Source: Methanomassiliicoccaceae archaeon (GTDB lineage: Archaea; Thermoplasmatota; Thermoplasmata; Methanomassiliicoccales; Methanomassiliicoccaceae). From it: a stretch of 64,000 nt of DNA. The stretch spans positions 1 through 64,000 of the forward strand of contig CAVSJV010000013.1 of the NCBI GenBank assembly GCA_963728405.1, read 5' to 3'. A program made the translations under genes and the position numbers. Every line of letters begins with the position of its first letter. Positions within the stretch are counted from its first letter, which is position 1. Shown one piece after another: positions 1,962 through 24,365 of this stretch. The notes under the pieces were generated by a model, which was given only the letters and a program-made list of their open reading frames with translations, did no database searches and had not been told where the DNA came from.

Positions 1962-3080
1962 ATGAGAATGGATTATGAGAGGACGTCTGTTAATAGCAAC
2001 AAAGCTTCTCTCATGGCGGAGGAATCTCATGTCCCTAAACGGGGCAGGGAGGCCTCTGTGGTCGAACAGGATGGTGGCCCGATGGTAGGCCACCCCTTTA
2101 CCACCATCGCCAACGACTACCTGCACTGCGTCGAGAACACGCATGGGGAGGCGACGGTGAAAGAGCTCCGCAGAAGGTTGAAGCGCATGGCCAAGGATTT
2201 CCAGACCCTCAAGGAACGCGGCATCATCGAGAGCGTTGATCCCCGCTACCTTAGCGATAAAGAAATCCTTGCCTACCTCGGCCTGCTGCGGGCACGAGGA
2301 ATGAAAGAGAGTGGCCTGGCGCACAACTTCTCCACGCTGAGGCAACTGTTGCGTCATTCAGACAACACAGCGCTCGATAAGATGCAGATACGCTATGGCG
2401 GTCAGCTCCCCAAGCGGCGGTCGAAGCGGCTGCCGCCCATGAGCGATAAGCAGGCCTACACCATACTGCAAGTGTCCGAGGGAGCGAACGAATGGCGCCG
2501 CATGCAAGCCTTTGCCCTGGTCATCCTGGCCATTTTCTCAGGGTCGAGGACGAAGGAACTACGTCTGGCGAAAGTGAGCGACCTCGATCGCGACGAGTGG
2601 ACATTGAACATCTGCCACCCCAAGGGCGAGAACACATGGGGCGACGAACGGCGTACGATCGTTCTGCCCCAGGCCAGGCCGCTCATAACCCGCTACATCA
2701 AACTAAGGGCGATTATGGGCGCCGAGAAAGCTCCGTTGAACGAAGCGCTGTTCCCAGCCCTACGCGACAAGGAGGACGGCTACTTCTCCACTAACGGCCT
2801 GGAGAAGCTGAAGAAGCTGGTCGAAGAAGAGGTCGGATTCAAGTTCGATCTGCGCACCTGCCGGAGGACCTTCGGGCAGATGTGCCTCGATCAAGGCGTT
2901 ACCATCGAATCGGTATCGGTCCTCATGGGCCACGACTCAACCAAGACCACGGAGAGCTATTACTGCCAAAAGAAAGAAGAGAAGGCATTGGCGGAAGTTA
3001 ACAACATATGCTCGCCCAAACCACCCGCCAAAACAAACCCTGTTATCTCAAAGGATAATTTCCTTGCTGGATATGGATAA
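1962..3080 (+). CDS. int: Tyrosine recombinase/integrase
   Basis: GSRTKEL (Arg), HPKG (Lys), RTCRRTFG, MGHDSTKTTESYY (His/Tyr); intact 372-aa ORF. Confidence 0.93.
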   Translation: MRMDYERTSVNSNKASLMAEESHVPKRGREASVVEQDGGPMVGHPFTTIANDYLHCVENTHGEATVKELRRRLKRMAKDFQTLKERGIIESVDPRYLSDKEILAYLGLLRARGMKESGLAHNFSTLRQLLRHSDNTALDKMQIRYGGQLPKRRSKRLPPMSDKQAYTILQVSEGANEWRRMQAFALVILAIFSGSRTKELRLAKVSDLDRDEWTLNICHPKGENTWGDERRTIVLPQARPLITRYIKLRAIMGAEKAPLNEALFPALRDKEDGYFSTNGLEKLKKLVEEEVGFKFDLRTCRRTFGQMCLDQGVTIESVSVLMGHDSTKTTESYYCQKKEEKALAEVNNICSPKPPAKTNPVISKDNFLAGYG

Positions 3081-3248: not shown

Positions 3249-5871
3249 TCACGGGCTCAGGGCGATGAGCACGTCCCGGACCTGCAGTGTTTCCACCGTC
3301 TTTCCTTCGAGGGTGAGCTTCTTCTGCACCTCGACGAAACTGGGGTCTAGGGTCACCGTGCTGCCGTCGGAGAGAGTAAGTTCCAAAGCCCCCCTCTCCA
3401 ACGCCGGTGCGACCTCTTGAGGGTCCACTGATTCCAGCAGCCGCAGGACCTCCTTTCCCTTGCCCTTGAAGGTCGGTCCGATCTTGGATTTCACCGGTTT
3501 CAGGGCCACCACCTTCATCTCTAGGTCAGCCTCGGCCACGATCTTCAGCTCCTTGGCCCGGGAGGTCTCCAGGATGTCCCGTTCGAAACCCTGCAGTGAC
3601 AGGGCGGACGGTCCGATGAGCTCGATCAGTTCCATCTCCTTGTTCAGGGCGAGCTTGTTCTCGGCCTTCCAGGACCGGATAGCGCTGACCACGTCCTTGA
3701 CCAGGTCACCCCTGGCCTCGTCCTCATCAGAGAACAGCACCGGCTCGGGCCACTGAGCAATATGGATGCTCTTGGCTCCGTCCATCTCCCCGAACCCGTC
3801 CTGATAGATGTCCTCAGTGACGTGTGGGAGCAGGGGGGCGAGCATCTTGGCCAGGCCGAGAGTGATGGTGTACAGTGTGAAGCGCACGCCATCGTCCCCC
3901 TCCCTAGTGCGGTACTTTATCAGCTCCAGATAGTGATCGGCGTATTCGTGCCAGGCGAAGTCCTCGACCTCGCGCATGGCCTTGTCGAACTGGTAGTCCT
4001 CATAGAACTTGGTGGCGTTCTTCACCACCTTGGAGAACCGGCTGAGGATCCAGCGGTCCAGGGGCTGCAGCCCCTTCTGCTCCGGTCTCGACTTCACGAC
4101 CATGGTGGTGAACTTGCCAATGTTCCAGAGCTTGGTGCATAGGCGCTTTCCATGGATGACGTCCTTCTCCCGGAACGCGTTGTCCTCGCCCAGGGCGCAG
4201 GTGCAGGCGTAGTAGCGTAGCGCATCCGCACCATACTCCTGCAGGATGGGCATGGGGTCGATGACGTTGCCGAGGGACGAATGCATCGGCGTCCCGTCCG
4301 GCGACATGATGAACCCGTGGATCATGATGTTGTCCCATGGCCGGACATCCGTCATCAGATAGCATCGTAGTAAGGTGTAGAACGCCCAGGTCCGGATGAT
4401 GTCGTGGCTCTGGGGCCGCATGGACATCGGGTAAAGGCGCTTGAACTTCTCCATGTCCCGGTCCCAGAACGTGTTGTAGAGGGGCGAGATGCTGGAATCC
4501 ATCCAGGTGTCAAAGACGTCCGGGCAGCCGACCAGCGCTCCGCCGCACAGCGGGCACTTGTCCATCGGGGGCTTGTCCACGGTCGGGTCGATGTAGCAGT
4601 CCTTCTCCTTGGCCGGCACGACGTAACCGCAATCCTTGCACTCCCAGATCGGAATAGGGGTGGCGAAGAACCTCTGCCGGGAGATAACCCAGTCCCACTG
4701 CAGGCTGTTGATCCAGTCCTTCAGGCGGACCTTCATGAACTCGGGGTGCCAGGCCACTTCATCGGCCAGTTTGAGCACCTGGTCCTTGAAGTCCATGGTC
4801 TTGAGGAACCATTGGGGGACCTGCAGGAACTCGATGGGAGTATGGCAGCGCCAGCACCCGCCGATGTTCATTCTGCTTGGCATCTTCCTGCTTGACCACC
4901 AGGCCGGCGGCCTTCATATCCTCGATAGCCGCCTTCTTGGCATCCTGGACGGTCATGCCCTGGTACTTGCCAGCCAGCGAGGTCATCTTACCCTGCTCGT
5001 CGATGGCCTTGTCCATCGGCAGCTTGTACTTCATGACCCATTCCAGGTCGGTCTTGTCGCCGATGGTGCAGATCATGACAACGCCAGTGCCGAAGGCCGG
5101 GTCGACCTTATCGTCGGCGATGACCTTGATCTCCTTTCCGTAGAGGGGAGTGAGCAGCACCTTGCCTATGAGCCATTCCTTGTTGCGGTCCTCGGGGTTG
5201 ACGGCGACCAGCTGACAGGCGGATAGCAGCTCCGGCCGGGTGGTGGCGATGATGACATCGTCCTCGGTGCCCTTGATGCGGAACTTGATGTAGTTCAGCT
5301 TGGTCACATTGTCCGAGTATTCGACCTCCGCGTCGGCCAGGGCAGTGATGCATGAGGGGCACCAGTTGACCGGGTAGTTGCCCTTGTAGACCAGGCCCCT
5401 TTCTAGCAACTTAAGGAATGTGACCTGGGTATTGCGCCGGTAGTAGGGAGCGTCGGTCTGATAGTAGATCGTGGGATCCATGCTCTCCCCGAGGACCTCG
5501 AATTGCTGGGTCATTGAGTCGACGAATGAATTGGCGAACTCCGAGCACAGACTGATGTACTCCTGCCGTGGCTTGGTGAGCTTGGTGATGCCGTGCTTCT
5601 TCTCCACCTTGACCTCGGTCGGAGTTCCGTTGACGTCGAAGCATAACGGGAAGAAGACATTGTGGCCGCGCATGCGCTTGTACCTGGCGGCGAAGTCGAT
5701 GAGCGAGTAACCAGTGGCGTGGCCTAGGTGAAGTGACCCGGAGGTGTACCGGGGCGGGTTGTCGATACTGTAGACGGGCCTGGTCGAGCAGGGGTCGAAC
5801 TGGTACAGTTTCCACTCCTTCCACTTCTGCTGCCACTTCTTCTCTGTCTGCACCGCTTCATACTGTGACAT
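3249..5871 (-). CDS. valS: Valine--tRNA ligase (frameshift near 4870, likely sequencing error)
   Basis: PPRYTSGSLHLGH (HIGH), ATTRPEL, DWVISRQR, DTWMDSS; ORFs 4759-5916 and 3249-4883. Confidence 0.95.
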
Positions 5872-6222
5872 GGACGGCATTGGAATGGCCGGACGATTTA
5901 AAAGGGTTTGTTTCAAAGCTCAGATGGGAAGGAAGCCCGAAGAATCTAGCCGTTCGAGCCGGGCAAACACATCTTCTGCTCCACTTATTTTTGATTTACT
6001 ACTTCCCTTGAAGCAGGAGCTCGGTCACCTTTAGGCCCTTGCTTCCGGCGATATGGACGCGCTGCTGTCATCCTCGTCGAGTTCGAGGTCATCCTTCGCT
6101 TTGAAATGGATCTGATCAGCGATCTCCCTTGAGGTGCCCCTCCATTCCTTGCGAAGGTCATCAGCAATCCTTGGAGGATAGCACTTCTGCTGTCCCCTCC
6201 GCCGGATCGTTCCATTCAATTA

Positions 6223-6972
6223 CTATGTCCGATCATGCTTCACACCATGGCCGAGGTCAGTGGCGGTGACATCATGCTGCCCCCTCTTCCAGAACTCCGC
6301 CATGAGGTGCCAGCTCCTATCTCCATAATCGTGCTGGAAATCCTGCTCTTCCAACCTGCGAATGGCGCGGGATATTGCTGGGACCTTCATGCTATCGGTG
6401 AACATTAGCAAGTAACCGCACAATGGGAAAAGGATGTATCCTCCCTTGTGAACCCTCTTGACCTCGTAACCAGGCCCCAGCATTGCTGTCACCTCCTTGA
6501 GCAGAAAGTGGCGATGATCCAAAACCGGATCCCTTCGCTCAAGTAGGACCCTTCTGCCGGCCGCGAAGAGTATGGACCTCTGCGCATCCACGAAATCGAA
6601 CGTTCCCTTATGAGGGACGGAGAGGATCAAACGGCCTCCTGGACGGAGCACCCGGTCCACTTCACTTAATGAGGCCTCTGGGTCAGGGACATGTTCGAGC
6701 ACATCTAGCATGGAAATTACGGAGAAAGTGGCATCATCGAACGGAAGCTTATCCGCCGAACCATAATAGAACTCAGCGTCCGGGCAACGTTCTTTTGCCT
6801 TCTGCAGCATCTCTTTGTCCACGTCCAGACCCATGGCCCGTTGGCATTTTGGACGCACCCATGAGATCAATGTCCCATCGTTACATCCAATGTCTAGGAG
6901 TGTGTCCCCGTTCTCCACCCATTCCATGGCTATCTTAGCCCGCCCCAATACTTCCTCTTCTTGTCCGAACAC
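6223..6972 (-). CDS. Class I SAM-dependent methyltransferase
   Basis: LLDIGCNDG, LPFDD, DVLEHV, RVLRPGG. Confidence 0.9.
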   Translation of the reverse strand: MFGQEEEVLGRAKIAMEWVENGDTLLDIGCNDGTLISWVRPKCQRAMGLDVDKEMLQKAKERCPDAEFYYGSADKLPFDDATFSVISMLDVLEHVPDPEASLSEVDRVLRPGGRLILSVPHKGTFDFVDAQRSILFAAGRRVLLERRDPVLDHRHFLLKEVTAMLGPGYEVKRVHKGGYILFPLCGYLLMFTDSMKVPAISRAIRRLEEQDFQHDYGDRSWHLMAEFWKRGQHDVTATDLGHGVKHDRT

Positions 6973-7850
6973 AATTAAATTTTATTTGAGCAACCAATAT
7001 TAACACTATTGGATAAGAATCGCATGCGGTTGGGCATTAGTTGATCCCAAAATCGTCGGAGGACCATCGCTGCGTCGCTGTGAGTCTGAAGGCCCCGGGC
7101 CAGTAATAAGCAGGGCACCTTCGGCCGCAACGGACAGATATCTAGACAAAGGGTTGGCCGTAGCACGGCAGCAGATGCGCTCATGGACAGTAGCTTCACC
7201 ACGCATGTGATTCCGGGGTCGAATAACTGGCTGAAGGGAGGCTACTCGTTAATCGAAGGTGTTCCAAGAATGGCCATCTCATGCATCAAATTCGATTAGC
7301 GCTGAATGATCGGCCTTCAACAGGACATGGTAGATGGCGGAACAAGGTCATCGTTGTTGGCTAGCCATTAGGCCAGGAATGCTTGTTCGCCCAGCTCCAC
7401 GGGGCTGATATTATGGGATGGGCTCATCTCCGATCTCATGGATTCGAAGCCGTCTGATGCCTTTTTTGGTGGATTATGATGCTCTAGAACGATCGATACT
7501 ATTGCCCATATGGTCCTGTCAGTGGTCCGGTTCTGAATGAGGAACTGTCGGTCATGGGTGTCCTTCAACCCTGGCCGAGATAATACTTAAGCAGAGGGAG
7601 ATCGATCGGAACTTCCCTGGTGATCCAGGCCCGGTGTTCCAATTTCGGTCAATATCGATCGTTCCGCCGCCGTTCTGATATCCTTACTGGTAGAGGAGGG
7701 AGCGGAGTACGCTGCGAGCGCCGAATCCAACGCTAGAGCCACTGCAGCTATAGCTGCTGTCCCTCCCCTTAAAAAATTCCCCATCCCATTATTTCCTCCG
7801 CAGTATTGCTATCGATCGACCTACCGATGAAATGGGGAGAAGGGGGCGGC

Positions 7851-9050
7851 TCAGCCGTGGCCGATGTTCCTGGAACGCCTCCGGTGCTGTATCTTCTCCT
7901 CTTTATGCTCGATGATGCGGCGCTCAAAGCTCTGCATCAGGTCTGAGGTCGCCCTTATGAGGTCCCATCCCGCCGAGCTGCCAGTGTATACGCGGTCGTC
8001 GGTGATCAAACGGGCATGTAGAGAATACTTGAAGTTCATTCCCACTTCTTTGTACCGACCAACGTGGAGGGCAAAGAGCGTGGGGGTCTCAATGGGTGAG
8101 ATCTTCTTCATGGAGATCTCGATCTCTTTGCTCATCATATCCAGGGCAAAGCGGTCGTCCTCCTCCAGACCGGATATCTGCGTGTAGACCACGTTCCTCT
8201 GCTTCAGAGAAGCGATAAGCTCGATCAGGTCGTATTTGGTCACGATGCCCAAGAGGGCCCCCTTCTCGACCACCGGTAGGGAGGAGATGTTCCGGTCAAG
8301 CATGATCTTGGCCGCTTCCCCAAGGGTCGTGGTCGGACCGGCGGTGACCGCTGGCTCCACCAGCACTGAACCGACCTCGACCTCTGCCGGCCTATTCTCG
8401 CCGATCAGTTCCCCGGTCGTCGCCCGGTTCTTCTTGGTCCAGTTGTAGTTGGCGATGTCCTTGATGCCGACGACCCCGATCGGGCGACCCTGGGCATCGA
8501 CCACTGGCAACACCCGGATGTCCATGTCCCTCATGATGGTGATGGCTTCCAGAACATGGTCCTCCAGTTTGACCGTCCTAACGTTCGGGGACATGATCTC
8601 GAGCACTGGGATGTCATTGAGCTCGCGAACCCTTTGGACGACCCCAAGGAGATGGGATCGAGATACCCATCCCGCTAACTTCTCATCGCTCAATACTGGA
8701 AGCTGTCTGAACCCGGAGTTAAGGAAGAGCTCGGCAACCTCGGTCAAGGGCATATCGACGGTAACCTTCTGAGGGGCGACCATTATGGTCTCCACCTTGG
8801 TCTCGATGGAGATGTTCTTCCTTCGGAGCAGGGTGCCGTAGCTGATGACGCCCAGCAATCGCTTTCCGTCCGCGCTGACTGGCAGGTCATGGAGGTCCAG
8901 GTCCCTCATCTTCTTCAAGGCATTATTGACGGTATCGGTGGGAGCGATGGTCACCACAGTAGTTTCCATCAATGTGTCCAGTCCGATCTCGTCGATCTCA
9001 GCTCTCAACCGTTCCTTCTTGTTGATGCCTACCAATTCCTCAACAGTCAC
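7851..9050 (-). CDS. 4xCBS + C-terminal HPF/RaiA domain protein, paralog 1 (putative ribosome hibernation factor)
   Basis: Two CBS pairs; C-terminal ~100 aa align by eye with HPF; GGAGG RBS before GTG at 9050 gives 399 aa. Confidence 0.85.
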   Translation of the reverse strand: MTVEELVGINKKERLRAEIDEIGLDTLMETTVVTIAPTDTVNNALKKMRDLDLHDLPVSADGKRLLGVISYGTLLRRKNISIETKVETIMVAPQKVTVDMPLTEVAELFLNSGFRQLPVLSDEKLAGWVSRSHLLGVVQRVRELNDIPVLEIMSPNVRTVKLEDHVLEAITIMRDMDIRVLPVVDAQGRPIGVVGIKDIANYNWTKKNRATTGELIGENRPAEVEVGSVLVEPAVTAGPTTTLGEAAKIMLDRNISSLPVVEKGALLGIVTKYDLIELIASLKQRNVVYTQISGLEEDDRFALDMMSKEIEISMKKISPIETPTLFALHVGRYKEVGMNFKYSLHARLITDDRVYTGSSAGWDLIRATSDLMQSFERRIIEHKEEKIQHRRRSRNIGHG

Positions 9051-9237
9051 AAATCGATCCTCCAAATATTGGAACTGGTCGATCCCGATTCATCCAATGC
9101 CATTGTTCGTCGGGACCCCACAGCACATCCATCGGATTAGACCGGAGGAACCAGTATATATCTGATTCTCAAATGAGGAGCGGAGCAGTAATAAAATAAC
9201 AATTAAAAAATGGAAGTAAAGGGTTTCGCCAGGCACA

Positions 9238-10437
9238 TCAGCTGTGCCCGATGTTCTTGGCCTTCTTGCGGTGGTCCAGCTTCTCTTCCTTCCTTTCGAT
9301 GACCCTCCGCTCGAGGTGCTGCATCAGCGTGACCGTGGCCTTGATCAGGTCCCAGTCGACCGCGGAAGCGACCCAGATCTTGTTCTCGGTGATCAGCCGC
9401 CCGTTCAGGGAGTACTTGAACTGGTTCCCATGGGCGTTGTACTTGGTCACATGCAGGGTGAACAGCATCGGCCTCGAGATCTTGGCGATCTTCTGTAGGG
9501 ATGAGGTGATGTCCTTGTCCATCTGCTCCGAGGCGAAACGGTCATCCTGGTCCAGACCAGTTATCTGGGTGTACACCATGTCCCTTTGGCGGAAGGACGC
9601 CAGCAGCTCGATGATATCGTACTTGGTAACGATCCCTACCAGGTTACCATCGTCCACCACCGGCAGGGTGGAGACGTTATTGTCGATCATCAGCTTTACC
9701 ACCTTGCCGAGGTCGGCGTCTGGAGCGACCACCACCACTGAGTCCAGGGCGATGGAGGAGACATTTACCTTTACCGGGCTGTTGTCCCCGGTCATCTCTC
9801 CGACGGTCTCGCGTTTCCGCTCCTTCCAGTTGTAGTTGGCGACCTGCTTGATGCCGATGATCCCGGTGATCCTGTTCTCCTTGTCCACCACTGGAAGGGT
9901 TCGGATGGTCAGGTTCTTCATCGACAGCAGCGCCGTCTCCACCGGGTCCTCGGAACCGACGGTCTGGACATCCTCGGTCATGATGTCGCTGACCTTCAGC
10001 TCTCGAAGGTCCTTGATGCCGTCAACGATCTTGATCAGGTCGGTGCGGGCGATCACGCCCTGGATGAGCTGCCCTTTTACAACCGGGATCTGTCTGAAGC
10101 CTGAGGTTAGGAATGCCTCCGCTACCTCGGTGACCAGGGAATCAGTGGTGATCTCCTGAGGCATTACGGTAATGGAACCGGCCTTGGTGGTGATCGGAAG
10201 ATTCCTCCTCTTTAGCAGGGTGCCGTAACTGACGACCCCCATCAATCTCTTACCGTCCAGGCTTACTGGCATCTCGTGAAAGTCGAGCTGCCCCATTTTC
10301 TTGAGCACGTCCGAGAGCTGCTCCTCGGGGTCAACATGTTCGAACCCCTTGGACATCAGGTCGGTTAATCTGATCGTTTCGACCATCGACCTGATCTGCT
10401 CCCTCTTCTTTATCCCGGCTATTTCCTGTGCGTTCAT
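9238..10437 (-). CDS. 4xCBS + C-terminal HPF/RaiA domain protein, paralog 2
   Basis: Collinear with paralog 1; ATG at 10437 after GGAGTAGG gives 399 aa. Confidence 0.85.
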   Translation of the reverse strand: MNAQEIAGIKKREQIRSMVETIRLTDLMSKGFEHVDPEEQLSDVLKKMGQLDFHEMPVSLDGKRLMGVVSYGTLLKRRNLPITTKAGSITVMPQEITTDSLVTEVAEAFLTSGFRQIPVVKGQLIQGVIARTDLIKIVDGIKDLRELKVSDIMTEDVQTVGSEDPVETALLSMKNLTIRTLPVVDKENRITGIIGIKQVANYNWKERKRETVGEMTGDNSPVKVNVSSIALDSVVVVAPDADLGKVVKLMIDNNVSTLPVVDDGNLVGIVTKYDIIELLASFRQRDMVYTQITGLDQDDRFASEQMDKDITSSLQKIAKISRPMLFTLHVTKYNAHGNQFKYSLNGRLITENKIWVASAVDWDLIKATVTLMQHLERRVIERKEEKLDHRKKAKNIGHS

Positions 10438-10656
10438 TTTTCCTACTCCGGATACTAGTTGGGATACTGCTGAAGAGGTTTCCGCATCAATGATGCGGAT
10501 GTTCATTGTTCATTCTCGTCATTGTAATTACTTCCAACCGTATAGAGCCTTGTCCATCATTATCTAAAGGTGGGACGAACGAACGAAGGATGGCTACGAA
10601 AAACGAAATGGGAATGAAAGATAGGAAATGGTTTCTTGGCCGTATCCGCCGAATAT

Positions 10657-12362
10657 CTATTGCTTCTCGTCAGAAACGACGAACTGGTCAAGGTTGGCGC
10701 CACATAGTGCCGCCCTCATCACCAGGGGGGCGTCGGAAGCGCGGAACCGGACCTGGGATTGACTGTCCCTCTCCCGGAGCGTGACGGTTCCATCTTGTAG
10801 GCTCTGGTAGTCGACAGTTATGCAGTACGGCGTCCCGATCTCGTCCATTCGAGCGTATCTGCGGCCGATGGAGCCGGAATCGTCGTAATATGTCTCGATG
10901 CCGCTGTACCTGATCTCTTGGTCGATGTCCATCGCTACCTTGTCCAGCTCGTCTCTGGACATCAGGGGGAAAACCCCCACCTTGATCGGAGCGATGGCCG
11001 GAGAGATCCGCAGCATCTCCATCTCATCCTTCTTGGTATAGGCGTGCTCCAGGCAGGTGTAGGTGATGCGGTCCAGGCCGTGAGAAGGCTCGATCACGTG
11101 GGGGATGACCTTGACGCCGGAGACCTTGTCCTTGACCCGGGCGACATCATAGTTCTCCTTGCCGAGGACGTACTTCTGGCCGTCCACCTCGACCGTTATC
11201 TCGCCGTTCTCGATGAGCGCTGGGTCGAACGCTTCCATGGCCTTGCCGATCTTGCTGCCGAGGGCCTTGTACTTCGGGCCGAGCAGGCCATACTTTGGCT
11301 TTACCACGTCCCTTTCCACCTCCTGGGGGGTCTCGAACCGTTTGAACGCGGTCATGTCCACACCCGAGAACTTGATGTGGCGGGAGAGGTCCCAGTTGCC
11401 CCGGTCGGCGATACCAACGATCTCGGTCCAGCCGTAGCTCAGGAGCGCCTCGGCGTCCCAGCAATCCGCGGCGTAGTGGGCCATCTCGGTCTTCTCGTGC
11501 TGCCTGAACCGGAGCCTGGCGCCGTCTACGCCGATGGCCTTGAGGAACTCCTGAGTGAACCAGAGGAAGTACGCGAGGACCTGGTTGCAGACCACATGCT
11601 GTTCCACCGCCTCGCCGACGGTGATGGTCAGTTCCCGGCCGTCATTGGCCAACAGCTGGAGCATCTCCTCCTCGACATCCTTGAAGCGCGGCCAGCTCTT
11701 ATCATCGGGGTCAACGAACAGTTCGCACTCCATCATGTTGAACTCCCGCATGCGGATCACTCCCTGGCGGGGAGAGATCTCATTGCGGTAGCCGCGCCCG
11801 ACCTGTATGACGCCCGAGGGGCAGCTTCTCGCGATTGTAGCGGTACAGATTTGGGAAATTGACGAAGATGCCCTGAGCCGTCTCCGGTCTCAGGTAGCCG
11901 ACCCGGCCGGAGCCGGGGCCGATGGTCGTCTTGAACATCAGATTGAACTCCTCCACCGAGGAGAATTCGCCCCCGCAGGCCGGGCAGACGATGTTGTTCT
12001 TCAGGATCAGGTCGTCGAGTTCCCTCTCCTTTAGAGTTCCAGGGTTGGGGTGGAGGTCCTTCACCAGGTGGTCGGCGCGGTAACGGTTCCTCGCAACCCT
12101 TGCACTTCACCATCTTATCGGCGAACTCGTCCCATGCACCAGAGGCCTTGAACACGATCTCCGGGCCGATGGTTTCCGAGTCGATCTCCACGAAACCCTC
12201 GCCCAAGGTGTACAGTCTTCTCCAGATCTCGGTGATGTTGTTCTTCATTGCGGTGCCCAGGGGGCCGTAATCATACAAGCCGGCCACGCCGCCGTACACT
12301 TCAAAGGAGGGGTAAAGGAAACCCCTGCGCTTGCAGAGCGAGAGAACGTCTGATGCATCCAT
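10657..12362 (-). CDS. glyS: Glycine--tRNA ligase, archaeal/eukaryal type (frameshifts near 12085 and 11815)
   Basis: YGGVAGLYDYGPLG, YLRPETAQGIF, RMREFNMME, SGSIGRRYARMDEIG. Confidence 0.95.
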
Positions 12363-12392: not shown

Positions 12393-13238
12393 CTATTGTG
12401 CCAGGATCGATATCACGTTGATGTCGTAGAGCATCGCTACCAGTTTGTCCTTGGAATCGACCACTGGTAACTGTCCGAAGTCATTGCGGCGCATGGTCCG
12501 GGCGGCCTCGGATACGTTGGTCTTCTTAAAAACCGTTGTGGGCGATCGGATCATGATGTCCCGGACCGGAATGGCGGGCATCTCGATCTTGGAGACCTCG
12601 AACCACAGTTTCATGACGTTCCTAAGCCCCTCCCAGGTCCACTCGTCCTCATCCCCGCCGATACCCAGGGCGGTCAGGGCGATAGAACCGTTGATTAGGC
12701 TCTTGTTGAAAACATCGCGATCGGTCAGTATGCCTGATAGCAGGCCATTGGCGTCCAGGACCGGCAGTGCGTTGACACGGCTGGCCTTGAAGGTGACCAA
12801 TGCCACCCGAAGCGGCGCATCCTGATAGATGGGGACGCAGGGAGAGAGGGCGATCTCTTCCACCGGTACGCCTGAGGCCTTCTTCTCCACCTCGTAGAGG
12901 AGGTCGGTAGGGGTCAGTATTCCGATGAGCTTCTTGTTCTCGACCACCGGAAAGTGGGTCACCTGCCTGGTGATCATGATCTTGGCAGCGTGTTCTAAGC
13001 TGTCCTTGGGAGACAATACCAGGGGGTCGCGGTTCATGACTATGGCCAGCTGGTCCTCTTCGGGGTTCTGGAAGATGTCATTCCTGGTCACCATCCCGGC
13101 CAGGCTGCCATCGCTTTTCTTGACGATCGGCACGCCCGTAAGGTTGTGTTTCACCATCAGCTTGAGAACATCGTTCCGGGAACCGGGGATCTCAGCGGTG
13201 ATGGGGTTGTGGGTCATCACTTCCTCGACCGTGGTCAT
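12393..13238 (-). CDS. Stand-alone 4xCBS domain protein
   Basis: Repeated CBS motifs (VPIV..GMVT..D; LPVLD..GILTDRD). Confidence 0.9.
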   Translation of the reverse strand: MTTVEEVMTHNPITAEIPGSRNDVLKLMVKHNLTGVPIVKKSDGSLAGMVTRNDIFQNPEEDQLAIVMNRDPLVLSPKDSLEHAAKIMITRQVTHFPVVENKKLIGILTPTDLLYEVEKKASGVPVEEIALSPCVPIYQDAPLRVALVTFKASRVNALPVLDANGLLSGILTDRDVFNKSLINGSIALTALGIGGDEDEWTWEGLRNVMKLWFEVSKIEMPAIPVRDIMIRSPTTVFKKTNVSEAARTMRRNDFGQLPVVDSKDKLVAMLYDINVISILAQ

Positions 13239-13687
13239 TTCTTATCCTCCGCGGCTGGCTCGGCCCGGACGACCAGGACTGGGCAAGGGGCGAAGCGGAC
13301 GACCCTCTCGGCTACGCTGCCCAGCAGGAGCTTGGAGATGCCTGTCCGACCCAGGGTGCCCATGACAACTAGGTCCTGTTTCTCCGCCTCATCGACGATC
13401 TTCTTGGCCGGAGAGCCTTCGGCGACCTTGGGGATTACCTTGACCCCGACCTTCTCACCCTCCTTTACCACGAAATCGACCGCGTCCTTCCCCTCCTTTT
13501 CGAGCAGGGAGTAGATGCTGACCACCGTTGCGTCCATGGGGAAGTTGACGAACGATGCCTGATCCACAACATACAACGCGGTCACTTCGGCTCCCATGAC
13601 GCGGGCCAGCTCGAGCCCCTGGGAAATGGCGGCCTTGGTGTTCTCGCTTCCGTCGGTAGGTATCAGTATCCTCTTGAACTCGTTCAT
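13235..13687 (-). CDS. Universal stress protein (UspA family)
   Basis: ILIPTDGS, VMGTLGRTG..LLGSVAERVVR..PCPVLVV; ATGA overlaps with both neighbours. Confidence 0.95.
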   Translation of the reverse strand: MNEFKRILIPTDGSENTKAAISQGLELARVMGAEVTALYVVDQASFVNFPMDATVVSIYSLLEKEGKDAVDFVVKEGEKVGVKVIPKVAEGSPAKKIVDEAEKQDLVVMGTLGRTGISKLLLGSVAERVVRFAPCPVLVVRAEPAAEDKK

Positions 13688-14751
13688 CTTGCTCCCTTCC
13701 ATGTCTTACAGCCTGCGCAGACAAATAATGGCTCCTCCCCGGCGGTGCGCAGGATCAGGTCGGTAAGAGGGTCCCCATGTTTTGAACGGACCACCATGAA
13801 ATCGCATGGCATGTCCGGTTCTATCTCTATTAGTGGACTCCGATTTATAATTTTTCGCCCATTACTGGTCACCATGCTTAAAACGCAGTCGAGACGGGTC
13901 ATCCCTTGCTGGCGCAGGAGCCGCCCTACGAATTCCATCTCCATGAGCAGGTCAGGCATGGATATCATCGCGTTGTCGGTGCCCAGGGCCATCGTGACGT
14001 CGTGCTTGACCATCCTGGCCAAAGGAGGGGTCATGCCGAAGAACAGGTTGGACCGGGCGCACACCACCACTGGAATGTCCAGTTGAGCGCACACCTCCAG
14101 GTCCGAGTCGGTGGCCTGGGTCATATGGATCAGGTATGATGGCTTCAGGTCCAATACCTTGTCCAAGTCCTCCCTTACCCGTTCCGAGCAGTGGAGGGCG
14201 AAAACCTTGCCCCGGGATCGGACGTGCTCCGACAGCTCCCGGAGCTCCTCGTAGTCCCAGTCCGTGATGGCGGAGGGGCCGATTCCCTCGGTTAGGTCCA
14301 GGAGGGCATCGATCTCCTCCCGGTCGAAGCAAGGCATCCTCGGTTTGCCGAGGACGTACGGTCGGGCCCATTGGGCCGAGGTCATGAGCTTGGCGCCTTC
14401 CACTCCCCCCTCCCGAAAGTCGGAGAACGCGGAGATGCCTCTCCGGAACATCGTCTCGGAGAGCTGGGCTATGGCCTTTCTCTGCTTCTCCTCGGACGTC
14501 TGGGAGAGGACGCGATACTTCAGCCCGTTGGGCGGAGCTACTACCTCTGCCAGTGTCAGAGAGAGGTCGATAGGGACAACGAAGTCGGCGATGTGGGTAT
14601 GGGCATTGATGAGCGTGGGCAGGATGATGCCCTCGGCGATGCACTCATGTGCTGTCCCCCTCCCCACTTCTTTGACGATCCCGTCCTCAAAGCCGACATG
14701 GCCATCCCGGAAACCCTCCGCTGTGAGGACCTTCCCGGACACGAATTGCAT
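13684..14751 (-). CDS. Amidohydrolase/deaminase family protein
   Basis: NAHTHIAD, LHCSE, IHMT, LGTDN metal-binding motifs. Confidence 0.9.
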   Translation of the reverse strand: MQFVSGKVLTAEGFRDGHVGFEDGIVKEVGRGTAHECIAEGIILPTLINAHTHIADFVVPIDLSLTLAEVVAPPNGLKYRVLSQTSEEKQRKAIAQLSETMFRRGISAFSDFREGGVEGAKLMTSAQWARPYVLGKPRMPCFDREEIDALLDLTEGIGPSAITDWDYEELRELSEHVRSRGKVFALHCSERVREDLDKVLDLKPSYLIHMTQATDSDLEVCAQLDIPVVVCARSNLFFGMTPPLARMVKHDVTMALGTDNAMISMPDLLMEMEFVGRLLRQQGMTRLDCVLSMVTSNGRKIINRSPLIEIEPDMPCDFMVVRSKHGDPLTDLILRTAGEEPLFVCAGCKTWKGAR

Positions 14752-21418: not shown

Positions 21419-22609
21419 ATGGAACAGGCCTATTTCGACAACAGCGCCACCACGATGGTGGACCCCCGGGTCGTTGAAGCGATGCTGCCGTACTTCACTG
21501 AGAAGTACGGGAACGCCTCCTCGCTGCACTCTTTTGGGCGAGATGCGTACAATGCGATGGAGATGGCTAGAGGTCAGGCGGCCAAGGCCATCGGGTCGGC
21601 GGCCCGGGACATCATCTTCACCTCCGGCGGCACCGAGTCCGATAACTTGGCCTTGCAAGGAGCGGCGTACGCAGCTATGGGCAAGGGGAAGCATATCATC
21701 ACCTCGGCGGTCGAGCACCACGCGGTCGTTCACGCCTGCCAATTCCTGGAGAGCCAGGGCTTCAAGGTGACTTACCTTCCGGTCGATGCCGAGGGTTTGG
21801 TCTCCATCGAGGACCTGAAGATGGCGATGACCAAGGAGACCATCCTTGTCTCCATTATGGTCGCCAACAATGAGATCGGGGCGATCCAACCGATCAGGGA
21901 GCTCGCGGAGATCGCCAAGGGGGGCGGGGCGCTCTTCCATACCGATGCGGTGCAAGCAGTTACTAAGATGCCTCTAGATGTAGAAAAACTGAAGATCGAT
22001 CTTCTGTCGTTATCGGCGCACAAGTTCCACGGCCCCAAGGGTGTGGGGGCGATGTATATCCGGAAAGGAGTGACGGTTCGCCCCCTCGTCTATGGTGGCG
22101 GCCATGAGCGGGGGTTACGCTCATCGACCGAGAACATACCTGGTATCGTTGGGCTTGGAAAGGCTGCCGAGCTGGGCATGATGGAGATGGATGATAGCGT
22201 GGCCAAGATGACCAAGATCCGCGACCACCTTATCGAAGGCACCCTGGCCACAGTGCCCCGCTCGTACCTCAACGGTCCACGGGGCCAAAATCGGTTGTGC
22301 AACAATGCGCACTTCCGTTTCGACTTCATTGAGGGAGAAGGTCTGATCCTCCACCTGGACATGAAGGGAGTGGCCGGCTCTACCGGCTCGGCCTGTTCGA
22401 CCAAAAGTCTCGAACCGTCGCATGTGCTAAGGAGCCTCGGACTGCGGCATGAACAGTGCCACGGCTCTTTGAGATTATCGCTCAGCAAGTTCAATACCAT
22501 GGAGGAGGCGGACCATTTCTTGACGGTGCTGCCGCCGATAGTGCAGAACCTGAGGAAGATGTCCCCGTTAGCTGAAGGAGTGAGCTACAATGTTCAGACA
22601 GTCCATTAA
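21419..22609 (+). CDS. iscS: Cysteine desulfurase, IscS/NifS class I
   Basis: YFDNSATT, FTSGGTES, SAHKFHGPKG, STGSACS. Confidence 0.95.
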   Translation: MEQAYFDNSATTMVDPRVVEAMLPYFTEKYGNASSLHSFGRDAYNAMEMARGQAAKAIGSAARDIIFTSGGTESDNLALQGAAYAAMGKGKHIITSAVEHHAVVHACQFLESQGFKVTYLPVDAEGLVSIEDLKMAMTKETILVSIMVANNEIGAIQPIRELAEIAKGGGALFHTDAVQAVTKMPLDVEKLKIDLLSLSAHKFHGPKGVGAMYIRKGVTVRPLVYGGGHERGLRSSTENIPGIVGLGKAAELGMMEMDDSVAKMTKIRDHLIEGTLATVPRSYLNGPRGQNRLCNNAHFRFDFIEGEGLILHLDMKGVAGSTGSACSTKSLEPSHVLRSLGLRHEQCHGSLRLSLSKFNTMEEADHFLTVLPPIVQNLRKMSPLAEGVSYNVQTVH

Positions 22610-22656
22610 TAATGGGTGTGCTGAGCCATGGCCGGGACTGTTCCGGCCCACACATA

Positions 22657-22700
22657 GCAACAAATCGTTGACAATTAGTGGCAACTATTATTTGTTGCCA
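22657..22700. promoter_or_regulatory. Palindromic operator-like sites upstream of iscU
   Basis: TGGCAAC-N8-GTTGCCA at 22679-22700; GCAACAAAT (22657-22665) is the reverse complement of ATTTGTTGC (22690-22698). Confidence 0.4.
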
Positions 22701-22741
22701 AATCCGTCTAACAAAATATCTCCTCGAGGTGGACCTGAACT

Positions 22742-24365
22742 ATGACTCCAGCTTATTCAGAAAAGGTGATGGAGCATTTCACCAACCCGCATAATGTCGG
22801 TGAGATACAGAACGCCGATGGGATGGGGCAGGTCGGCAATCCTGTGTGCCTGGTCAGTGGCACCCTGGTACAGCTTAACAATCACTACCTTGAGATCGAG
22901 GATGTCCAAGAGAAGGAAAAGGTTCTGACCCACGAAGGTGTGTATTCGACTATCGAACGGAGGTCAGTCCGTGACTATGAGGGCCCAATATATGTTCTGA
23001 AGAACAAACTTGGATTGGTGGAGACAACCCCAGAACATCTTGTTTTAGCCATTAAGAAACCAAAACAGTTCAAATATAATTATACGGTTAATAAGAAAAA
23101 ACTCAATCCTGAATGGTATCATGTAAGTGAGCTTGAGCGAAGGGACATTGCTCTGTATCCAATATTAAAAGTCATAATCGATCAGGATGAGCATTGTCTA
23201 AATATTGGTCATGATAAAAAGGATCGTTGTAGATACCATTTACCAGAAAAAGTACCTGTTGATTCGGATCTCCTTTTACTCGCTGGATATTATCTCTCAG
23301 AAGGTCATGCGACAACGAGTGGAACGCATGCTCACGTCGGTTTTTCATTCCATATTGAGGAAGAGGAATTTCAAAATGATGTTATTCGTATTGTAGAAGA
23401 AAAATTTGGTCTTAAATCTTCCCTAAGATTGAAAGAGGACTACAATGTAGCATGCGTATTGGTACATAGTGCGAACCTAGCAAGGGAGTTGGGACAAACC
23501 TTTGGTAAGGGTGCCACTAATAAACACATCCCAGATTTCATGCTATTTCTTCCTCCAGAAAAACAGTCACACTTGTTACGAGGACTCTGGAGAGGAGATG
23601 GCTTTATCGATTTAAAAAGAACACGTCCAAGAGCTGGCTACTCGACAACATCGAAGCAACTTGCCGGACAGATAAAGACACTCCTGTTACGGCAAGGAAT
23701 AATCCCCTCTCTTTATCGCGAGCCCGGCTCGATGACTGAGACTATCACTCATCAGGAGAACTACAGAATTCATGTGGGCGACCTAGCATCGCTGCAAAAA
23801 TTGTGTAAAATAATGGGCGTTGAGTATAAACCAGGGAGGGCTCCCAAGGAGCACTCATGGATAAAAGATGGTTTCCTCTATACTCCAATCACCAGCATCG
23901 AGAAGCGGCTGTTCCAGGGCACTGTACACAATTTTGAAGTGTCTGACCAGCACTCCTACGCCACGGACTCCTTTACCGTTCATAATTGTGGCGATATGAT
24001 GTACATCTACATCTCGGTCAAAGATGACATCATGACCGACAGTCAAGTTCAAGACGTTCGGTTGCGGGGCGGCCATCGCAACTAGCAGCATGGTCACTGA
24101 TCTGGCCCGCGGGAAAACCCTCGAGGAGGGATTAAAGATCACTAGAAAGGACGTCGCTGAGAGCCTGGGGGGGCTTCCACCGCAGAAGATGCACTGCTCG
24201 AACCTGGCCGCCGATGCCCTGCACGAGGCGATCCACGACTATCTGCGCAAACAGGGGCGGGAACCTCCCCTTCCTCATGGGACCAAGAAGCCGCATGAAG
24301 AGGACGCCTGCGAGGTCGATGAGGACTCGCCTATCCAGGTCCAGAGCGAGGTCCCCAAGGGGTGA
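22742..24365 (+). CDS. iscU: Fe-S scaffold IscU/NifU containing an intein (extra base near 24041)
   Basis: YSEKVMEHFTNPHNVG..GNPV[intein]CGD..KFKTFGCGAAIATSSM..KMHCSNLA. Confidence 0.93.
22847..23986 (+). mobile_element. 380-aa intein with LAGLIDADG homing endonuclease
   Basis: Begins CLVSGT; TPEH block B; LAGYYLSEG and LRGLWRGDG motifs; ends FTVHN followed by Cys; AT-rich. Confidence 0.95.

Follow-up and report, generated by a model that had tools for sequence, protein, structure and literature searches.

Introduction

Ribosome hibernation factors of the HibA/AHA family were solved on archaeal ribosomes in 2025-2026. HibA (also named Hib) was reported from Pyrococcus abyssi and Thermococcus barophilus (PDB 9sr9 and related entries; Madru et al., Nat Commun 2026, PMC13324472), and AHA (HVO_2384), of the same architecture, was described independently in Haloferax volcanii (Souza et al., EMBO J 2026, PMC13728122). 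The stretch of DNA analysed here, referred to as the window, comprises 64,000 nucleotides (nt) from a Methanomassiliicoccaceae archaeon whose genome is assembled in 18 contigs and 2.73 Mb. It contains a head-to-tail pair of genes on the minus strand, hibA-B upstream and hibA-A downstream, coding for proteins of 399 amino acids (aa) apiece (B and A, respectively). On sequence grounds both are members of the published HibA/AHA family, all the sequence-level features of the family that were tested being present in the two, and they are very probably hibernation factors of this type, each acting as a monomer at one ribosomal site. The family and its within-genome paralogs are already in print; the novelty is confined to the conserved arrangement of two copies.

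The structures of HibA and AHA on the ribosome show one chain contributing the entire four-CBS disc together with one HPF domain. The monomer reaches across the ribosome, and its HPF domain takes up a single small-subunit site (PMC13324472, PMC13728122). HibA of P. abyssi presented one nucleotide per module, at the CBS4 site, where the ATP contacts include I254, T256 and D259 of the CBS4 motif (PMC13324472 supplement 2, sheet 4), and the CBS3 site was not seen occupied (PMC13324472). AHA presented two bound AMP, at sites equivalent to AMPK-gamma sites 3 and 4; according to the same study a genome often contains several AHA or HPF paralogs, and a Methanomassiliicoccales protein was among its search queries (PMC13728122).

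Two further groups are comparable. Dri, SriA-D and ARC-P/ARC-A also bind archaeal ribosomes through four-CBS modules, as stand-alone or double CBS-module factors, but lack the HPF domain; ARC is, like the pair in the window, formed by two paralogous CBS proteins, although ARC-P and ARC-A bind together as a complex whereas A and B are predicted to compete for one site. The bacterial HPF/RaiA proteins (pY/YfiA, PF02482) are homologous at profile level to the C-terminal domain of A and B; they differ by the absence of a CBS module, by paralogs that are not in tandem and by a Pfam threshold that A and B do not reach. In E. coli, HPF and RaiA have differing roles. They form, like A and B, a pair of paralogs, with overlapping 30S sites (paralogy per PMC13728122, section 8).

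With HibA the two proteins share the four CBS domains followed by an HPF/RaiA-like domain, a similar length (399 vs 392 aa), the long CBS3 loop and the CBS4 nucleotide motif (I/T/D). Differences are the low identity, several rRNA-contacting residues of A, a longer basic tail ending in NIGH in the copies of the window genome's family, and the presence of two tandem copies in the window genome; two HibA copies per genome find no mention in the main text of PMC13324472. AHA belongs to the same family and has the same architecture as A and B. Unlike AHA, with its two AMP, the pair keeps the CBS3 Asp only in copy A, copy B having Gln, and the passages of the AHA paper that were consulted contain no account of a tandem arrangement or of its age and asymmetry. 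Literature searches on HibA paralogs and on hibernation in Methanomassiliicoccales, together with term searches in the two papers, gave no description of the tandem pair, although their large supplements may list copy numbers.

Membership in the HibA/AHA family

The best match of A among all PDB chains (phmmer) was 9sr9_H, the HibA of P. abyssi (392 aa, E 3.8e-25), deposited under the name 'Dehydrogenase'; a further match in the same search was 9l96_a (406 aa). The main alignment joins residues 148-386 of A with residues 131-375 of 9sr9_H and therefore covers CBS3, its loop, CBS4 and the entire C-terminal domain.

The link with the bacterial proteins was identified with two profiles. The first (A1) comprises the C-terminal domain alone of 53 Methanomassiliicoccales sequences. 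Against the PDB it matched HibA at E 0.0073 as the sole match, bacterial HPF not being found, and in a library of 1.84 billion proteins it recovered 626 representative clusters at E <= 0.001, most of them of 360-400 aa and some being stand-alone forms of 100-130 aa. The second (A4) comprises 29 rows and was widened with 19 short or stand-alone proteins from these library matches. Against the PDB it matched HibA (1.7e-06) and then bacterial HPF, RaiA/YfiA and pY chains, from 2.4e-04 to about 0.1, among them 8rd8_D (2.4e-04), 4v8h_AX (1.1e-03), 1imu_A (1.5e-03) and E. coli HPF (8.3e-03). With hhalign, A4 aligned with residues 51-94 of E. coli HPF at a probability of 88.7% (E 2.5e-06), which is the same stretch that the original prediction, made from the sequence alone, had aligned by eye. 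PF02482 was matched by 20 of the 29 A4 members at E <= 1, with a best value of 4.9e-07. The prediction of a pair of CBS4-HPF/RaiA fusions akin to the Hib of Thermococcales is upheld by the homology to HibA, these profile links and the two papers.

Direct comparison with PF02482 (Ribosomal_S30AE) was suggested in the same prediction. A six-frame scan of the 2.73-Mb genome with this model gave one match only, in the C-terminal domain of B (9283-9531), and the C-terminal domain of A gave none. The link with HPF/RaiA stands through profile A4, but neither protein reaches the Pfam gathering cut-off (23.7 bits), and both are therefore filed under HibA/AHA and not as plain PF02482 members. A homologue search with residues 283-399 returned just 18 close relatives. 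From the ESM Atlas came a single named lead: a cluster of archaeal proteins, 12% of which carry PF02482. Its score of 0.78 lies below the level at which a lead is counted.

Gene pair and domain architecture

The pair comprises the only HPF-bearing genes in the whole genome, and their products are named in public records just 'CBS domain-containing protein'. The mechanical open reading frames (ORFs) exceed the 399-aa starts, with 404 and 422 aa; the shorter starts are supported because Met is the first residue at this alignment column in nearly all homologues (n=55) and because GGAGG and GGAG are found just upstream, 8-10 nt from the starts. Aligned without gaps over 395 residues, the two proteins share 49% identity. 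Four CBS stretches were identified in each protein (Pfam; E 1e-47 and 9.6e-43), with no other Pfam domain above threshold, followed by a C-terminal domain of roughly 115 aa in both. The locus accordingly agrees with what had been predicted of it: two genes of 399 codons with ribosome-binding sites, coding for well-diverged paralogs with four CBS domains each and annotated only as CBS proteins.

The CBS3 loop is a stretch of 24 residues after the CBS3 motif, present in both copies and corresponding to residues 190-207 of HibA. Residues W204, G213, G217 and P221 of this loop are invariant or nearly so across the order. As in its HibA counterpart, the loop would contact the peptidyl-transferase centre. 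The CBS4 motif GIVTKYD is kept in A and B, its I, T and D aligning with the ATP contacts I254, T256 and D259 of HibA, and the Asp of the motif was identified in 55 of 55 homologues. At motif level an adenine-nucleotide site between CBS3 and CBS4 is predicted in both proteins.

Distribution and age of the duplication

Copies were surveyed in 41 genomes of the order. The tandem, B followed by A, was identified in all 11 genomes of genus g1 and all 6 of genus g5, both of the Methanomassiliicoccaceae, with a B-A spacer of 131-187 nt. In g5, copy A is split between two frames in one genome and cut by the contig end in another. A single gene was identified in genera g3 (4/4), g4 (1 genome) and g6 (1 genome) and in 17/17 genomes of six other families; in the sole g2 genome the one gene, of B type, is broken into at least two pieces.

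The tree omits five gene fragments, namely the truncated g5 copy and two fragments each from g2 and from the split g5 copy. In it the Methanomassiliicoccaceae genes form one clade (support 100/99). Clade A comprises 15 downstream copies (100/99) and clade B comprises 17 upstream copies and 6 single-copy genes (99/96). A late duplication, confined to the shared ancestor of g1 and g5, was rejected: a tree constrained to unite every g1 and g5 gene in a single clade was worse by 25.6 log-likelihood units (approximately unbiased (AU) test, p 0.0065), in a test where the group was named after the tree had been seen and A is on a longer branch. On the tree and the AU test, the duplication seems to predate the split of these genera, A being then lost in g3, g4 and g6. 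The phylogeny that the original prediction had proposed as a check thus places the duplication before the g1/g5 split. No relic of A was identified downstream of the single-copy genes at E <= 0.001.

An even sample of the phylum (301 genomes, with just two other genomes of the window's family) presented an HPF-domain match in 147 genomes and more than one in only 4, which include the window genome and one with an independent adjacent pair. A genome from another family of the order (G312) contains three HPF-domain ORFs (C3:109751-110059, C3:111095-111412 and C4:16750-17082), two of them adjacent, in what looks like an independent tandem duplication in the same family.

Divergence of the two copies

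The two copies have evolved at unequal rates. Mean identity between orthologues is 62% for A and 80% for B (105 pairs, same 15 genomes), and the lower value of A holds in the CBS module and the HPF domain alike. The ratio of nonsynonymous to synonymous substitution rates (dN/dS, NG86), estimable in 11 of the 12 pairs tried, is 0.10-0.30 for A and 0.05-0.14 for B, A being higher in 11/11 pairs. Both ranges are well below 1 and therefore indicate purifying selection on both genes. The invariant HPF-domain residues, like the CBS3 loop and the basic tail, are retained in copy A; the residues invariant across the order are all common to A and B, and only 7 columns are conserved within each clade yet different between the two.

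The notable one among these columns is position 198, which is taken here to be the ribose-binding Asp position of the CBS3 motif, as known from the CBS/AMPK-gamma literature. All the copies of clade A contain Asp there, whereas Gln was identified in 17/17 paired B copies and 6/6 single copies; the outgroup genes contain Asp or Glu (17/17), and among 92 full-length family representatives Asp was found in 62 and Gln in 1. The counterpart position of CBS2 is reversed, with Asp in 21/23 B-type copies and a variable residue in A (His 6, Asp 4, Gly 4, Ser 1). Copy A may respond to AMP through two sites, like AHA, with B using only the CBS4 site. The original prediction had also raised a response of the two copies to different ligands, for which the Asp/Gln split at this ribose position is the single hint.

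Upstream regions

The motif ATA[AT]ATAC was identified in 15/15 B-A spacers, 64-122 nt before the start of A, with flanks otherwise poorly conserved, and by its sequence it would be a TATA-box-like promoter element of A. This invariant element between the genes supports the separate upstream regions that had been predicted. A run of five or more T after the stop codon of B was found in 7/15 spacers. B-type genes have a conserved upstream element of their own, and the two copies would be differently expressed or tuned.

The leader of B contains a hairpin followed by AAACCTCTTC, which is invariant among the 11 genomes of the genus. In the same 11 genomes 2 of the 6 pairs of the hairpin presented compensatory changes (RNAalifold); with the 23 leaders of B-type genes RNAalifold gave no consensus structure. 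AAACCTCTTC resembles the 3' end of the 16S rRNA and could pair with the Shine-Dalgarno site of B itself. Hairpin and AAACCTCTTC together might be a translational control element.

Proposed function and alternatives

By homology to the complexes solved from H. volcanii and P. abyssi, A and B would both work as monomers. On the large subunit the four-CBS disc, with its long CBS3 loop, would fill the tRNA sites and the peptidyl-transferase centre, and the idle 70S ribosome would thereby be held together and protected, with adenine nucleotides bound between CBS3 and CBS4. Binding to the ribosome is expected for A and B by analogy, and since the same ribosome-binding parts are present in both, the paralogs would compete for one ribosomal site and would not bind jointly.

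A more specific proposal, advanced only tentatively, is a sub-functionalised hibernation system in two tiers. B, with Gln in place of the CBS3 Asp, would be the conserved default factor with one nucleotide site, and A, faster-evolving, separately transcribed and equipped with the ancestral two-site AMP sensor, would compete with it for the same ribosomal site.

Several points weigh against the proposed function. The narrow profile A1 gave a probability of only 13% against E. coli HPF (hhalign), the match of B to PF02482 scores 16 bits (E 0.04 per genome), well under the cut-off, with A unmatched, and the HPF fold of both proteins is assigned from sequences and profiles. Identity to the HibA of P. 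abyssi is low, and several of its residues contacting the rRNA, such as R292 and R299, are unconserved in the pairwise alignment. Neither AMP nor ATP had an observed effect on the binding of P. abyssi HibA to the ribosome (PMC13324472). The Asp/Gln difference at the CBS3 site may be without consequence, because that protein has its one nucleotide at the CBS4 site and shows no such effect of AMP or ATP on its binding.

Redundancy is possible too, at a probability well short of even. A and B would do the same hibernation job, the second copy providing dosage or robustness and the Asp/Gln difference being neutral. The equal architecture and length of the copies, their gap-free alignment, the order-wide invariant residues and CBS4 motif common to both, the mere 7 sites that distinguish the clades and the CBS3 site not seen occupied in P. 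abyssi are all in line with it. However, the pair has been retained across two genera despite divergence to 49% identity and unequal rates, A has a conserved promoter-like element of its own, and position 198 is fixed differently in every copy, with a Gln that is present in 1/92 representatives.

That copy A has moved in part to a function away from the ribosome, such as nucleotide-dependent association with other proteins, with B staying as the hibernation factor, is unlikely. The faster evolution of A in both domains and its higher dN/dS in 11/11 pairs would fit, as would the pull-down association of Thermococcales HibA with proteins of DNA replication and recombination that the discussion of PMC13324472 mentions. 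Nevertheless the invariant HPF residues, the CBS3 loop and the basic tail are kept in A, and its dN/dS is still well below 1.

A heterodimer of A and B acting on the ribosome, which the original prediction had raised, finds no support and is very improbable. The genes are adjacent and co-retained, and many CBS proteins oligomerise. The solved complexes, however, contain one chain with one HPF domain in a single small-subunit site, both copies keep this domain, and four genera of the family keep only the B-type gene; since the solved factors reach across the ribosome as monomers, with one place for the HPF domain, A and B are better seen as alternatives than as partners. Finally, generic CBS regulators with an unrelated C-terminal domain and no ribosomal role, as the public name and the CBS-only Pfam report would have it, are scarcely credible for a C-terminal domain directly homologous to that of the solved HibA and linked by profiles to HPF/RaiA.

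Features and neighbourhood of the locus

Table 1. Features of the hibA-B/hibA-A locus (positions in the window).
Feature	Position	Strand	Remarks
hibA-A, downstream paralog, faster-evolving	7851..9050	-	GTG start, 399 aa
HPF/RaiA-like domain of A with its basic tail, residues 283-399	7854..8204	-	alignment to HibA, profiles
Four-CBS module of A, residues 1-282	8205..9050	-	Pfam
Long CBS3 loop of A, about residues 199-222	8385..8456	-	aligns with the peptidyl-transferase centre loop of P. abyssi HibA, residues 190-207
Codon 198 of A, Asp, ribose position of the CBS3 motif	8457..8459	-	Asp in 15/15 A copies
Shine-Dalgarno-like GGAGG of A	9059..9063	-	8 nt 5' of GTG
ATATATAC, TATA-box-like element of A	9154..9161	-	103 nt before the A start codon
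T6 run, possible oligo-T terminator	9205..9210	-	27 nt after the B stop
hibA-B, upstream paralog, slowly evolving	9238..10437	-	ATG start, 399 aa; groups with the single-copy gene of other Methanomassiliicoccaceae genera
HPF/RaiA-like domain of B with its basic tail, residues 283-399	9241..9591	-	profiles, PF02482 sub-threshold match
Four-CBS module of B, residues 1-282	9592..10437	-	Pfam
Same CBS3 loop in B	9772..9843	-	A/B alignment
Codon 198 of B, Gln, ribose position of the CBS3 motif	9844..9846	-	Gln in 23/23 B-type copies
Shine-Dalgarno-like GGAG of B	10446-10449	-	just 5' of the start
Leader of B	10472..10498	-	6-bp hairpin (10482-10498), then AAACCTCTTC (10472-10481)
CTCTATAC, TATA-like element upstream of B	10540..10547	-	aligns with the conserved TTCAATA of relatives

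The order HhpR-like CBS protein, glycyl-tRNA synthetase (GlyRS), HibA and leucyl-tRNA synthetase (LeuRS) is conserved across the Methanomassiliicoccales. In the window a stand-alone four-CBS protein of 281 aa (12393-13238, minus strand) matches the HhpR model end to end, with 148 bits against a cut-off of 520, and also PH1780 (2yzq, E 1e-36). Its gene overlaps by 4 nt that of a universal stress protein (13235-13702, minus strand), and its placement upstream of GlyRS-HibA is kept in the family. HhpR was placed in CM-3, as a regulator family and not as a hibernation factor (PMC13324472).

The GlyRS gene (10657-12362, minus strand) is found in three frames (10657-11760, 11780-12064 and 11757-12362), and the LeuRS-like class I tRNA synthetase (3249-5916, minus strand) is split between an ORF at 3249-4883 and another, overlapping it in a different frame, at 4759-5916. 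The LeuRS region of relatives reads through at the frame change of the window, and the breaks in both genes are probably indel errors of the assembly rather than real pseudogenes of essential genes. A gene for an S-adenosylmethionine-dependent methyltransferase (6223-6972, minus strand) sits between A and LeuRS. Among the relatives examined HibA, whether one gene or two, is directly followed by LeuRS, in most of them within about 0.1-0.3 kb, and the methyltransferase gene looks like an insertion specific to the window genome.

Other elements are an ORF of the phage integrase family (1962-3080, plus strand) and a 2-kb stretch of low G+C content (22001-24000; 0.479 vs about 0.57 elsewhere), both of which may be mobile DNA. 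A scan of positions 7600-10800 with Rfam gave only a sub-threshold match to the C/D-box RNA sR32 (8283-8349, plus strand), antisense within A; at 20.5 bits against a cut-off of 40 (E 0.016), it is probably due to chance.

Implications

As the HibA/AHA family is already settled, the value of the identification lies in a correct annotation, by which 'CBS domain-containing proteins' become ribosome hibernation factors. The tandem pair is besides a natural experiment on the role of nucleotide binding by the CBS module, a question left by both founding papers: the Asp of the second AMP site is retained in one copy and replaced in the other, and ligand binding, expression and ribosome occupancy of A versus B could show whether this site tunes the entry into hibernation or the exit from it. 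The host is a slow-growing, energy-limited methanogen. If the two-tier proposal is true, the pair would let the cell grade or time the silencing of its ribosomes by energy state, and would be an archaeal counterpart of the division of labour between HPF and RaiA in E. coli.

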